Shown here in pieces: positions 6,642 to 26,125 of a stretch of 26,125 bases of DNA. The notes beneath the pieces are model-generated. The model did not search any database and had not been told where the DNA came from. It worked only from the letters and a program-made list of their open reading frames with translations. The translations under genes and the position numbers were made by a program. The stretch covers positions 1 through 26,125 of IMG/VR virus record IMGVR_UViG_3300016659_000060; one strand, 5' to 3'. Origin of the DNA: a virus. Its lineage: Duplodnaviria; Caudoviricetes. Position 1 is the first letter of the stretch, and each line of letters opens with the position of its first letter.

Positions 6642-7784
6642 TTATAATAATTGCATCCATTTCTGAATTATTTCATCACTTTTTCTCATTCCGTTTCGTT
6701 CAATAAGTTGTTCTTTGGTGTAATTTACATTTTCGCCAAACGTCCACTTCTTGCTGGTAATATTCCCTTCCCAATCACAAAGCAAAATCCTTTTAACCAT
6801 ATATTTAAAACAATCTTCATCCTCCACATGTTGCAATCGCAACCATTGATAATCAAAAATTCGCTTTAAATCAGGATGAATAGAACCCATCAAAAATTCT
6901 TTATATTCCTTCCAAGTTTTAAAGTTCTCAGGCAAAGATTTAATGGAATACATCAAATTTTCTTTACCATAAATTGCTGCAGTATGAACGCCATGTAATC
7001 GCTTTTCTAATTTATCATAGGTTTCAGGCTCTAGTTCCTGCAGATCGGTAAGGCATCGAAACGCTTTTTCGTGTACCAAATTCGACACTCGAAAGGTTTT
7101 CAAATTACCGCCAAGCATATACATTTTATCATAAATCCGATTGTATTTAAGATTGTTTTCAATCAAATACTTCCAAATGTCTGTGTATCTCCAATCAATA
7201 ATGGGATACGCCTTGTGCGGTTTGTTTTTTCGTCTCAACCAAAACAACTCCGAATCTTCTCCAAACATTACAAATCTTCTGTCTGGACTTTCTTCAGCTC
7301 GCAACCCGATGATAGAAACACTTTTACCTTTCATTTTCTTTTCTAGGTTCTGACCCACCCACAAATTAAATTTATGAAACCTTTTTGGATACATTCGGTC
7401 AATGCTATGAATCGCCATTGGATGCTTTTCCCTAATCCATTCTTCGCCTTCGCCCCAAGCCCACAAAAATAATTGTTGTTGGCTTGCTGCATTGGTCATA
7501 AAGATAGGAACCTGATACCATAACGGAATAACATTTGGCTGAGACATTGCCCATTCTACAAAATCAATTGTTCCTTGATACTCGGCCTCTTGGTCTTGGA
7601 AGTACAAAATGAATTTCCGATCTCTTTTTTTAGCTTCGGCATTAATCAAATGAAACAAAGCCGTACTGTCTTTACCTCCCGAAAAAGACAGCGAAATGTT
7701 GTCGTATAAATCAAACAATAAAGAAATCCTTTTCTCTACCGCTTCCAGTACATCAACAGTCCCCCTAACTACCGTTCTAGCCAT
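6642..7784 (-). CDS. ibrA: IbrA-like PP-loop ATPase (PAPS-reductase fold plus DUF3440-like C-terminus)
   Basis: SFSGGKDS PP-loop, DQEAEY, GLRAEES.RR, YPIIDW, YD.MY..G; directly downstream of an IbrB-like gene. Confidence 0.85.
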   Translation of the reverse strand: MARTVVRGTVDVLEAVEKRISLLFDLYDNISLSFSGGKDSTALFHLINAEAKKRDRKFILYFQDQEAEYQGTIDFVEWAMSQPNVIPLWYQVPIFMTNAASQQQLFLWAWGEGEEWIREKHPMAIHSIDRMYPKRFHKFNLWVGQNLEKKMKGKSVSIIGLRAEESPDRRFVMFGEDSELFWLRRKNKPHKAYPIIDWRYTDIWKYLIENNLKYNRIYDKMYMLGGNLKTFRVSNLVHEKAFRCLTDLQELEPETYDKLEKRLHGVHTAAIYGKENLMYSIKSLPENFKTWKEYKEFLMGSIHPDLKRIFDYQWLRLQHVEDEDCFKYMVKRILLCDWEGNITSKKWTFGENVNYTKEQLIERNGMRKSDEIIQKWMQLL

Positions 7785-8332
7785 TACTCAAAATCAGGTT
7801 GTACATCTTCTTCCACTTCTTTAATTTGTCGTTCGATGGAGTAGGGAACGCCTTGTATTTCACTAGCAATTCCTTTCAAACCAATCAAACGCTGTACTTC
7901 TTCGAGAGTCATTCCCAACTCCTTCATGATCTTGATTTCGTCCCAACCAGCTTTTAGCATTCCAACCAATGAAGCTTGTAATTCTACTTCGTGCTTTCCA
8001 CGAGCTCGATTGTGGCGAATGGTAGAGGCCATTCGGTCGGATATATCTTTTTCAATTACCGATACTGGTAACATTCCGCCCTCACGCTCATAAATATTCT
8101 TGTAGCGCACCATAATGGTATAACGGTGAAAACCATCAACAATCACGTATTTATCGCGGTCTTTGTCGTAAAAACACACAATCGGCATCGTGTATCCATC
8201 GCATTTAATACTTTGATACAATAAATCCATTTCTCTTTTGGCTACGTGATTCGGGTTGTAGTCATTAGCTTCTATCTTATCCAATGGCACAGCAATCACA
8301 TTATATACTGGGCTTTTAAACTTTTTACTCAT
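7784..8332 (-). CDS. ibrB: IbrB-like ParB/Srx-fold protein
   Basis: NDYNPN, SIKCDGYTMPIV, IVDGFHR, ASTIRHNRARGKH plus a C-terminal HTH-like segment (KELGMTLEEVQRL). Confidence 0.9.
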   Translation of the reverse strand: MSKKFKSPVYNVIAVPLDKIEANDYNPNHVAKREMDLLYQSIKCDGYTMPIVCFYDKDRDKYVIVDGFHRYTIMVRYKNIYEREGGMLPVSVIEKDISDRMASTIRHNRARGKHEVELQASLVGMLKAGWDEIKIMKELGMTLEEVQRLIGLKGIASEIQGVPYSIERQIKEVEEDVQPDFE

Positions 8333-23853: not shown

Positions 23854-24347
23854 TATTCTAATGTTAAAGGAATGAAACTTGGTAATTGATACGCACTAGA
23901 GTTAGCCACAAATCCAGAAGGCGTAATAGAAACCGTCTCGATGCTTACCGATCCTTTTTGAAGGTTCGCTTCAATCTTGATTTTTGGGCGTGCGTTTTGC
24001 TTATAGTCGTTGCGGCCAATGACGATATCTCGTCCATCGGACAATTTTAGTTTTACAAACTTGATCCTGGATAACAATGCCAATCGCTCGGAACGATTTC
24101 CATCGGCATTGGGAAAAGAGAAAACTACTTTTTGTTTGTAGAGCGTTCCTGCAGATAATTCCTCTGAGGATTCTTCAAAAGCAACACTGGCTAAGCCTAC
24201 GTATATTTTGCTAAAATCCGTTTGGACCATAGCCGAATTATAGAATTGTTGCCAATCCGGAATAGACGCAGCTGTAAGTTGACCATTGAATGCCAACTCC
24301 ACACCGCAGATACGTACGTTAACTTTTGCTCTATCAAGTAGTTCCAT
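23853..24347 (-). CDS. Conserved phage hypothetical (probable virion) protein
   Basis: 164 aa, TAATG-coupled to the fibre gene; beta-rich. Confidence 0.7.
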   Translation of the reverse strand: MELLDRAKVNVRICGVELAFNGQLTAASIPDWQQFYNSAMVQTDFSKIYVGLASVAFEESSEELSAGTLYKQKVVFSFPNADGNRSERLALLSRIKFVKLKLSDGRDIVIGRNDYKQNARPKIKIEANLQKGSVSIETVSITPSGFVANSSAYQLPSFIPLTLE

Positions 24348-24364
24348 AAAATATTTGGTTTCTA

Positions 24365-24419
24365 CGAAGATAGTAAAAAATCAACTAATAGTTTATTTTT
24401 TACTTACAAAATCAACTAA
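24365..24419 (-). promoter_or_regulatory. -7-like element TATCTTCG with upstream direct repeat AAAATCAACTAA x2
   Basis: Repeats at 24377-24388 and 24408-24419; -7-like box 17 nt upstream of ATG 24347. Confidence 0.45.
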
Positions 24420-24473
24420 AAAGATAATAAATTCAACCTGTAGTTTAGTTCTAGTTTTTTCAAAAACTCGAAA

Positions 24474-24726
24474 AAACCTAGAAAAAAATGTAATTTTGTA
24501 ATTTTCGGTTTTTTTACCCTCTCAACCCTTATAAAATAAGGGTTTTTTAATTACAACCGTTTTGTAATCTAGGGTTTTGAAGAAAATGTAAAAATGTAAT
24601 TATATTTTATGTTACATTTTTTTTGTAATTCACGTTACAAATCAAAGTATAAAATGTAACTAATAAACCCCTATAAACACTGGGCATTTCCGCAGAGGTT
24701 ACAAAATTACATTTTTTTCTAGGTTT
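24474..24726. repeat. Perfect 28-bp inverted repeat enclosing 197 bp rich in TGTAA/TTACA pentamers (candidate origin or invertible segment)
   Basis: AAACCTAGAAAAAAATGTAATTTTGTAA at 24474-24501 and its exact reverse complement at 24699-24726. Confidence 0.85.
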
Positions 24727-24827
24727 ATTTTAAAATGGGGGGTTGGGGTAAAAGTAGGTAAGAATTCGCGTACTTTGCTTTTTTAGCGAGTACTTACAAA
24801 AATGTATTTTGATTAACCAATGACCCT

Positions 24828-25118
24828 ATGCCATTTACTGATGACCAAATAAGCCAAATGCAGCTCCTTTTCAAGCGAATTGAACCTACTACCATAGAAA
24901 GTCTTCAGGTGTATAAAAAAGAGAACGAGCACCGCACCGGTTGCACCCAGGTGATAAAGAACCGATGGGGCAAACCTATTTGTGTATTTCAAGTATTCGA
25001 GCCACTGAGCAAGTATCGTATGTCGTTATTACTGCGATTATCTGCATCAATCCCGTTTCAAATTCATATACGCGATTCTCGTGAGGACAGAATCACGGTA
25101 GGATGGAAGTGTAAATAA
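24828..25118 (+). CDS. Hypothetical protein (96 aa)
   Basis: ATG ORF ending at a hairpin shared with the convergent gene. Confidence 0.6.
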   Translation: MPFTDDQISQMQLLFKRIEPTTIESLQVYKKENEHRTGCTQVIKNRWGKPICVFQVFEPLSKYRMSLLLRLSASIPFQIHIRDSREDRITVGWKCK

Positions 25119-25144
25119 AAAAACCACTCTGAAGGGAGTGGTTT
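25117..25144. terminator. Terminator hairpin between convergent genes
   Basis: AAACCACTC-TGAAGG-GAGTGGTTT. Confidence 0.7.
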
Positions 25145-25346
25145 ATAGTTCTATGGTTCCGTTACTGAATGGACAATATTGCTTTTTGGGTTTTGGTAAT
25201 AGGTCTGAGTGTTCTCGTTTTATTTTCTCAGCAATAGCCTCACGAATAAATCTGCCAACATCAACCTTAAAACCCTTCATTTTTTGAAGGGTTTTGTGTT
25301 GTGTTTCGGTTATTCTGATAACCTTAGTTTTGGTGTATTGCTTCAT
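25143..25346 (-). CDS. Small ribbon-helix-helix-like DNA-binding protein
   Basis: KTKVIRIT strand followed by two helices (ETQHKTLQKM, VGRFIREAIAEKI). Confidence 0.6.
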   Translation of the reverse strand: MKQYTKTKVIRITETQHKTLQKMKGFKVDVGRFIREAIAEKIKREHSDLLPKPKKQYCPFSNGTIEL

Positions 25347-25391
25347 AATTGTAATACATTTATAAGTACTAGCCAGTAGTTAGCACCAATA

Positions 25392-26036
25392 CTACGAAAC
25401 TGCACAACCAAGAACATATTGTCCTATATTTGGGTCAACGCAATTGCGAATTATTTGGTCTTTTCTATGTTTCAATTTATATTCTCGTAAATCAAAATAA
25501 CCTTTTTCAGAACTTCCTCTTTCATTGTGAGTTAATCCGTCTTTTATTTCTGTTTCAGGTATTTCAAAGTTTGCCCAAAATAAATGCCTACCAAGTTTTG
25601 CAGTTGGTTTTACAAATGGCTCGTAATAAGGCTTTACATTTTCAACTACAAACTTTATATCAGTATTCTTTGTAAAGTTCTGTAAAAAGATTATTTCACT
25701 CCACAATTTCATATCAGGCATTACTGCATCGTAACTTCCACTTTTACTTGCCATCATTCTTACTTTGCTGTGGCTTTGGCAAGGTGGAGAACTCCATATA
25801 AAATCAAACTCTCTCCAATGTTTAGCCAAATAATCGTGTGCATCAGCAACTATTACATTATCGTTTGGGTGTAATTGCTTGTAAACATTTGCGATTTCTT
25901 CATTGTATTCTATTGCGGTAACTTCTACATTTCCCCAATGTTTGCGGTTTCCTCCAATTCCAGCATATAGGTTTAAAACCCGTACTGGTGCTAACATCGG
26001 TTTGGCAAAATTGCCGTTTAGTGCTTCGTTTGACAT
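25392..26036 (-). CDS. Short C5-cytosine DNA methyltransferase
   Basis: Motif I LYAGIGG, motif IV SSPPCQSHS, motif VI VVENV; alternative in-frame ATG at 25997. Confidence 0.9.
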   Translation of the reverse strand: MSNEALNGNFAKPMLAPVRVLNLYAGIGGNRKHWGNVEVTAIEYNEEIANVYKQLHPNDNVIVADAHDYLAKHWREFDFIWSSPPCQSHSKVRMMASKSGSYDAVMPDMKLWSEIIFLQNFTKNTDIKFVVENVKPYYEPFVKPTAKLGRHLFWANFEIPETEIKDGLTHNERGSSEKGYFDLREYKLKHRKDQIIRNCVDPNIGQYVLGCAVS

Positions 26037-26114
26037 TCTATCTTTAATTTAAGCATTTGTAATTCTAATGAAGTTTTGTGTTCGGCAACTTCGCCAAGCC
26101 GAGAAACGTTAGTA
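25982..26114. other. attC-like recombination-site hairpin
   Basis: TGCTAAC (25989-25995), 20-bp imperfect arms 25997-26016 and 26083-26102 (17/20 complementary), then GTTAGTA at 26108. Confidence 0.6.
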
Positions 26115-26125
26115 GCAAGACTACA

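Follow-up and report, generated by a model that had tools for sequence, protein, structure and literature searches.

A methyltransferase gene cassette in a Flavobacterium-type phage points to an integron-like system of gene exchange, likely driven by a short Xer-type recombinase

Background

In integrons, as described in PMC5027507, the attC site of a cassette carries two or three extrahelical bases near its L box, and the strand that bears the crossover AAC folds and recombines preferentially. The same source describes XerC/D as able to recombine single-stranded substrates. At attI1, ORF-11 is described as aiding translation of the first cassette (PMC8618304, PMC8876359). A site in Polaribacter phage P12002L was filed by Qi et al. 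2023 as attC1, part of a phage CALIN, and it was the only one of six sites that IntI1 failed to recombine (PMC9892861).

A literature search, in which subscription journals, figures, and bioRxiv supplements were thinly covered, returned no account of the system described below. The methyltransferases of Baltic Flavobacterium phages were reportedly compared by Nilsson et al. The methyltransferase differences among these phages were tied by the authors to plating efficiency, and the words "integron" and "cassette" are absent from the main text (PMC7077304).

The current work concerns a window of 26,125 nucleotides, the whole stretch of viral DNA that was analysed (IMG/VR record IMGVR_UViG_3300016659_000060). 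The original prediction, made from the letters of this window, had described at its right-hand end a phage methyltransferase gene packaged like an integron cassette, with start codons inside an attC-like site.

The window and the structure of the cassette

All 92 records matching the first 8 kb of the window are Flavobacterium phages, and its best matches are the F. psychrophilum phages 2A, 23T, and 1H (Unahavirus), at 79% over 1.9 kb. At 6642-8332 the window carries a gene pair for a PAPS-reductase-like and a ParB-like protein, annotated in the F. psychrophilum phages as IbrA/IbrB.

Every element of the original prediction was found again at its place in the window. Read as its reverse complement, GTTAGCACCAATAC (25379-25392) agrees with GTACTGGTGCTAAC (25982-25995) at 13 of 14 positions; GTTAG stands at 25379 and at 26108, with CTA 8 nt after each; and the hairpin arms TCGGTTTGGCAAAATTGCCG and CGGCAACTTCGCCAAGCCGA pair in the fold, with spacers of 1 nt and 5 nt. 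A single inverted pair is not rare, as 34 pairs of 14-mers matching at 13/14 and lying at most 1 kb apart occur in the window, at about 8 places. The detector called the full pattern, a hairpin with complementary ends, a single time in the window (the 729-nt unit) and 179 times in 60 related loci, against 1 call in shuffles of those loci. The parts of the unit are the following.

25379..26107, no strand assigned: mobile cassette, 729 nt from GTT to GTT, consisting of closing box, methyltransferase gene, and own hairpin
25379..25392, minus strand: closing box, GTATTGGTGCTAAC on the gene strand, overlapping the stop codon and directly 3' of the gene
25392..26036, minus strand: gene of an orphan C5-cytosine DNA methyltransferase, 214 aa (PF00145, E 4.8e-10; phrog_363)
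25982..25995, minus strand: opening box, reading GTTAGCACCAGTAC on the gene strand; it is the complement of the closing box at every position but the seventh after GTTA, where a G·T wobble stands
25992..26111, minus strand: attC-like hairpin site, TAAC...GTTA, 120 nt (from folds and pair statistics)
26034..26036, minus strand: ATG of the hairpin loop, the likely start codon; A stands at -3, -12, and -13
26108..26125, minus strand: closing box belonging to the neighbouring upstream cassette, truncated where the contig stops (identical 14-nt end found elsewhere)

The hairpin of the window has a 4-nt bulge and a C·A mismatch, and its loop, long and rich in A/T, contains the likely start codon; the gene-strand fold contains no extrahelical bases. 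The junction rejoined at the length of a 729-nt circle folds into a single stem (-25.9 kcal/mol). A search of Rfam gave no relevant match to the hairpin site; its five weak matches are all far from the gathering score.

Complementarity of the ends was counted in 73 matches to the window's hairpin arm, a set in which some contigs appear twice. The 10 nt after GTTA agree with the reverse complement of the 10 nt before the later TAAC at 9/10 positions in 53 rows and at 7-8/10 in 17; agreement is lower or absent in 3 rows and 10/10 in none. Among 435 distinct cassettes, which remained of 480 after removal of near-copies, the mismatch lies at position 7 in 423, and in 362 the gene strand shows it as G·T. 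Thus, the single mismatch noticed at first reading is a conserved, strand-specific feature. The bases after GTTA vary across the 435 cassettes, those of the window being GTTAGCA / TGCTAAC, and the gene strand gives the better fold of the rejoined site in 369.

Of the 435 sites, 240 have a spacer asymmetry of 4 nt, 114 of 3 nt, and 42 of 2 nt. The 240 sites with an asymmetry of 4 pair without gaps, and their arms covary freely while the C·A mismatch is kept in 136 and the G·T pair in 159; the remaining sites may hold bulges, as the register was set by ungapped matches. Because the detector selects paired arms, these statistics describe detected sites.

The gene had been predicted to point away from its own hairpin. 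This is the arrangement in the window and that of the longest ORF in 334 of 390 cassettes of at least 200 nt. Setting aside the 56 whose longest ORF is on the other strand and 34 without an ORF spanning 60% of the body left 300 cassette ORFs; in 100 of these, as in the window, the stop codon ends 13 nt from the cassette end, which is the commonest arrangement.

A second cassette had been suspected at the window edge. In agreement with this, the 14-nt end found there closes unrelated ORFs in other loci, and the contigs of other runs change into other sequence after 26111-26112. In five loci (L131, L142, L161, L133, and L290), this closing box and the matching opening box surround five unrelated ORFs. 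Cassette ends are evidently reused across genes.

Mobility of the cassette

In a comparison of 60 viral methylase loci with the window, the whole 729-nt unit was matched in 10, at 91.8-94.5% identity, and identity stops at the TAAC/GTTA cores; the remaining loci mostly have other ends or none. The match spans 26111-26121 to 25378-25379 in L001, L003, L009, and L010, extends to 25359 in L045, and begins at the contig's own end in L002. In L004-L007 it begins at 26101, within the left arm. The methylase cassette of L004, L006, and L007 has no upstream TAAC and lies in G+C-richer surroundings; it was apparently inserted there minus the left end of the site. Cassettes with the two end sequences of the window were found between 12 different pairs of neighbours.

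Junctions could be read more closely in contigs from other runs. Two contigs are nearly the same as the window up to the junction, X11 over 24301-25381 (16 differences in about 1,080 nt) and X15 over 24301-25384 (19 differences), and both pass into other sequence from there. Since X11 reads GTTG and shares only GTT, the crossover is placed within GTT (25379-25381). The X2, X4, X5, and X8 contigs break at 25381-25383, and loose ends also occur at 26111-26112.

Methylase-rich arrays are present in five isolated Flavobacterium phages. Four of them carry four different last cassettes on one identical anchor, followed by a 65-aa homologue of the 67-aa protein encoded beside the window's cassette. 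When blocks of at least 300 nt shared by the five phages were compared in pairs, 18 of the 24 block ends, which are not independent, lay at most 4 nt from TAAC, against 5.5% of positions. Two of the other six are at GTTA, three inside a hairpin arm, and one elsewhere; thus, some exchange takes other routes.

The stretch 25379-26107 had been proposed to be one cassette, exchanged at its GTT cores and followed by further units. It recurs as a block between different neighbours and is bounded by the cores. The X11 and X15 junctions, the boundaries of the recurrent unit, and the block ends of the isolated phages put the swaps at the GTT core. Further units upstream form chains of up to 9 cassettes before a 67-aa-type anchor gene, and 12-13 detector calls fall in one array region of the isolated phages. 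The genome comparisons confirm the methylase unit as a real mobile gene cassette.

No back-joint of the 729-nt circle was found in the Logan contigs of 8 runs, an assembly type that drops rare forms. One contig with a hairpin arm before 25379 was considered as a circle and rejected: the hairpin is a different one, so the position is interior to an array.

Exchange by short homology has to be weighed here. The hairpins would then be repeated regulatory spacers, serving translation start or a transcription pause, and genes would be swapped as in PeSL shuffling, with no dedicated recombinase. PeSL shuffling, which involves mini-circles, sets a precedent (PMC2839356), many array-bearing phages have no recombinase, the loops carry start signals, and the three block ends inside hairpin arms, with the two at GTTA, are of the expected kind. 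Most junctions, however, share TAAC only and have unrelated sequence on both sides, even at the hairpin-less anchor. Homology swapping also leaves unexplained why distant cassette ends stay complementary with a strand-specific wobble, and why recombinase genes stand at a fixed distance from array ends. As an account of the whole system it is unlikely, and it may account for the junctions inside arms.

Array ends and the linked recombinase

The array in the window ends in the following elements.

25344..25382, minus strand: attI-like anchor, array end, TAAC-TACTGGCTAG...TATAAATGTATTACAATT-ATG (same spacing and motif in homologous loci)
25143..25346, minus strand: gene of a small protein of 67 aa, predicted ribbon-helix-helix (phrog_25647; model pLDDT 75)
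25121..25144, minus strand: terminator-like stem-loop directly 3' of the 67-aa gene (consensus match only)

The anchor has 36 nt between the T of TAAC and the ATG, and it forms no hairpin. A hairpin-less attI-like site at 25379 had been postulated, and the conservation of anchor spacing and motif in homologous loci argues for it. The anchor motif turned up in 42 loci; their upstream 30-mers are of 39 different kinds, and 33 of the loci then carry a 67-aa-type gene. Of 50 loci with the 67-aa gene, 49 were entered and 34 kept; a cassette closes at most 170 nt from the start of the 67-aa homologue in 28 of the 34, mostly at 36-38 nt (control 2/90). The protein model is a strand-helix-helix with pLDDT 75. 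Its fold matches are nearly all ribbon-helix-helix proteins and are weak (E 2.5 or worse; Z at most 4.5), so this is a likely assignment only. The stem-loop at 25121-25144 would end the array transcript.

Beyond these elements, the stretch 24372-24729 is A/T-rich and non-coding, and it holds a 31-nt inverted repeat (24471-24501 / 24699-24729). TGTAAH motifs number 12 in 24489-24711 against 88 across the whole window, and another lies at 25350 in the anchor. The stretch may be a replication origin or may contain operators for the 67-aa protein.

In other arrays, the place of the 67-aa gene is held by a recombinase. The 80 recombinase loci were reduced to 68 entered and to 56 after removal of duplicates and of loci with less than 900 nt upstream. 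In 45 of the 56, a cassette closes at most 170 nt from the recombinase start, the distance being 46-57 nt in 44 of the 45 (control 5/160). The array-linked enzyme is about 267 aa long, is closest to XerA/XerC, and has a gene co-oriented with those of the cassettes. Among the loci fetched, two have a full short tyrosine recombinase at the array end and two contigs have a truncated one. In L005 (6672-6839) and in L001 (from 7685), an array and an anchor are followed by a truncated recombinase gene, of 55 and 114 codons, respectively. Loss of the recombinase from arrays seems recurrent, because the genes in both of these loci are truncated.

A second type of array end is recognizable in the sequences, one with an attI-like site before a ribbon-helix-helix-like gene instead of a recombinase, and one phage record contains both anchor types. 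Since the window has the site before this gene, its array would need a recombinase from outside. The original prediction saw no integrase in the window, and none of the 35 window proteins scanned matched a recombinase family.

On TIGR02249 (cut-off 265), the recombinase of L109 scored 132.7, in two pieces. Between two aligned blocks it is 48 residues shorter than VchIntIA, at the place where IntI has its insertion, and all 78 scored ORFs have their motifs 59-64 residues apart. By its alignment, the array-linked recombinase is without the IntI insertion and hence is no IntI. The suggestion that a tyrosine recombinase belongs to the arrays is borne out by the short recombinase genes at array ends (45/56 loci), the visible link being one of adjacency.

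The distribution of the enzyme is uneven. No match to the short recombinase was found in two isolated phages with large arrays, two proviruses gave only a 27% match, and phages 2A and 1H only 23%; these weak matches are probably the proviruses' and phages' own prophage integrase. Among the four best chromosomal matches (42-44% identity), one has cassettes nearby, with the recombinase head-on to them. The other three have no cassette nearby, and two of them are on contigs shorter than 5 kb. The bacterial contig with the head-on recombinase (C12 of G007; L286, L291, and L292) carries long arrays of cassettes of 0.6-3 kb, and this recombinase has 345 aa; hairpins there reach about 190 nt, and the cores are CAAC/GTTG.

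These results bear on the possibility that the units are ordinary integron cassettes, carried off from a host integron by the host IntI, and that the phage array is a passive remnant (CALIN). The insertion typical of IntI is missing from the linked recombinases; the sites differ from attC in spacer, core consensus, and gene orientation; and P12002L_attC1 was not recombined by IntI1 (PMC9892861). In addition, annotations of the arrays in the isolated phages give methyltransferases and small hypothetical proteins as cargo, and phages conserve the anchors. Such an origin is quite improbable, even though the GTT/AAC geometry is the same, the P12002L site of this shape was called attC by Qi et al. 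2023 (PMC9892861), and two contigs have truncated recombinase genes 3' of the array.

Translation start and the methyltransferase

Two ATGs, at 26036 and at 25997, are in frame with the methyltransferase, and the start had been predicted inside the site at one or the other. In F. johnsoniae, A at positions -3, -12, and -13 of the initiation region is described as promoting initiation (PMC6847099). The likelier start is the loop ATG at 26036, which has these bases; the other ATG (25997-25995) lies in the stem without A at -3, -12, or -13 and is disfavoured. Across cassettes, A occurs at -12 before 98 of 112 loop ATGs versus 151 of 312 other hairpin ATGs, and at -3 before 73/112 versus 83/312. 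A hairpin ATG opens 122 of the 300 cassette ORFs, and 77 of the 122 have no in-frame ATG in the next 90 nt. Because the other 178 start in the body, a start within the site is common but not the rule.

Residues 1 to about 18 of the methyltransferase (MSNEALNGNFAKPMLAPV) are encoded by the site and the box, and homologues outside a window-type cassette start near the position of VRVLNL. The opening box sits where the free homologues have their start codon; the site is therefore probably needed for expression. The original prediction expected leaders of the FAKPML type on unrelated proteins. Among 42 cassettes with the window's hairpin arm, FAKP.L heads 35 ORFs, and the NGNFAKPML-type leader is present in 18 of the 19 cargo families.

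The methylase likely shields phage DNA from host restriction. It also occurs in a second end set with its own start kept, and without ends (L011, L014, L016, and L033 versus L019-L046). A methylase tree of 31 rows left 13 of 28 branches open and grouped the ten type-A cassette copies only at 75/98; in such a tree repeated packaging and loss of ends look alike, and the label "free" may include decayed cassettes.

Proposed mechanism and meaning

Mobility, boundaries, complementarity of the ends, strand bias, and two anchor types are read here from genome comparison. The likely explanation is exchange at AAC sites on the folded gene strand by a short Xer-like recombinase, supplied in trans for the array of the window; we infer the enzyme, the circle, the single-strand mechanism, the mode of expression, and the methylase function. 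The unit in the window would be the anchor-proximal cassette of a phage gene-cassette array, ordered on the gene strand as hairpin, opening box, gene, and closing box. On excision, the closing box would be linked to the hairpin of the same cassette, giving a fully paired site in a 729-nt circle; the circle would then insert at some other hairpin or else into the fixed anchor. The recombinase for this array would come from another phage or from the host. With the gene oriented away from its hairpin, an array transcript would begin at the far end, pass through the hairpins, and reach the anchor gene and the terminator. Each cassette would carry its own translation start, as the hairpin loop likely supplies the start signal.

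The same recombinase might instead work by a classical two-strand reaction of the Xer type, on sites that are double-stranded or cruciform, and the hairpin would then serve mainly in RNA, for expression. The enzyme is indeed closest to XerA/XerC and without the insertion that marks IntI, and a G·T bias on the coding strand would also suit an RNA fold. The boxes, however, meet only after excision or across a whole gene, and exchanged partners share only 3-4 nt, which makes a two-strand reaction highly unlikely. Both observations fit exchange of one strand on a folded site, as described for integrons (PMC5027507), and this favours the single-strand mechanism given above.

A broader and more tentative reading is possible. 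Phages of the Bacteroidota may run a mirror image of the integron, with an Xer-like enzyme lacking the insertion, starts within sites, arrays fed in trans, and gene loading. What would distinguish its folded single-strand sites is a 4-nt bulge with wobble pairs, in place of extrahelical bases, and arrays without a recombinase, anchored by the ribbon-helix-helix-like gene, would draw in trans on a shared pool of cassettes. New cassettes may form when a gene is loaded between existing ends, because identical ends flank unrelated genes and because one methylase was found free and in two sets of ends.

The arrays, the swaps at GTT, the FAKPML leaders, and the linked tyrosine recombinase support the predicted phage-borne system for cassette shuffling. 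In sum, the results point to an integron-like system that has hardly been described, through which phages exchange anti-defence genes and whose likely driver is a short Xer-type recombinase. If true, this would be a second integron-like chemistry, in which cassettes are shuffled without the insertion that marks IntI and which is built into phages, not hosts. It would offer a mechanism for the unexplained methyltransferase differences in Baltic Flavobacterium phages (PMC7077304). The system is directly testable, because these phages and their hosts are in culture. The arrays flag hundreds of small unknown genes as candidates for counter-defence functions. The reuse of ends on unrelated genes bears on how cassettes first arise, and if new cassettes are made by loading genes between ends, the origin of gene cassettes becomes testable.

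Comparison with known systems

The closest described site is P12002L_attC1, a TAAC-hairpin-GTTA site of the same kind as that in the window and likewise heading a methyltransferase cassette. By our own comparison, the attC2 of Qi et al. is the reverse complement of the terminal site of the P12002L array. The text available of that paper makes no mention of the inverted gene, an own recombinase, or anchors (PMC9892861).

The rAID-1 elements of Bacteroidales (10.1101/471110; PMC12247911) belong to the same phylum and have an XerD-like recombinase and co-oriented small genes. Their intergenic motifs are called integron-reminiscent, and the likeness drawn here is one of description, not of site sequence. 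The rAID-1 group is delimited by over 44% identity to BF9343_RS08045 together with this motif. As described, the rAID-1 recombinase lies 5' of the genes, whereas the phage recombinase lies 3' of the array, or head-on in one chromosomal contig; rAID-1 cargo consists of chromosomal immunity genes, that of the present system of phage genes.

PeSL of T4-type phages (PMC2839356) resemble the present sites in being stem-loop spacers where accessory genes shuffle, with mini-circles known for PeSL. They are promoter-terminator units, and covarying ends, a fixed 3-nt crossover, and a linked recombinase are not among the features mentioned in the accessible text (PMC2839356). Sigma70-like promoter hits at the present sites number 8 versus 6.6 ± 2.3 expected, which is chance level for a consensus that does not cover Bacteroidota promoters.

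With integrons, as far as the cited descriptions go, the system has the following in common. Cassettes are bounded by GTT/AAC and their ends re-form a paired site (PMC5027507, PMC2095811); the crossover falls in the GTT/AAC triplet, here as read from genome junctions; and hairpin sites of about 45-130 nt have one strand that folds better. A hairpin-less terminal site stands beside a tyrosine recombinase, here in 45 of 56 recombinase loci; in the window the site equivalent to attI precedes the 67-aa gene instead.

The two systems differ as follows. In an integron, the cassette gene is read from attI/Pc in the direction of its attC, whereas the phage cassette gene leads away from its hairpin. 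IntI carries an extra insertion with helix I2 (PMC2095811), whereas the phage enzyme of about 267 aa does not. The attC spacer leaves 5-6 nt unpaired on each arm, against 5 and 1 nt in the window with a 4-nt bulge, and of the integron core GTTRRRY / RYYYAAC the phage sites keep only GTTA with 10 covarying bases. Unlike in the integrons described, the start codon is often inside the site, there is a second type of anchor, and the arrays are common in phages. Thus, from its sites, junctions, and enzyme, the system is integron-like in its working, yet it falls outside the integrons.
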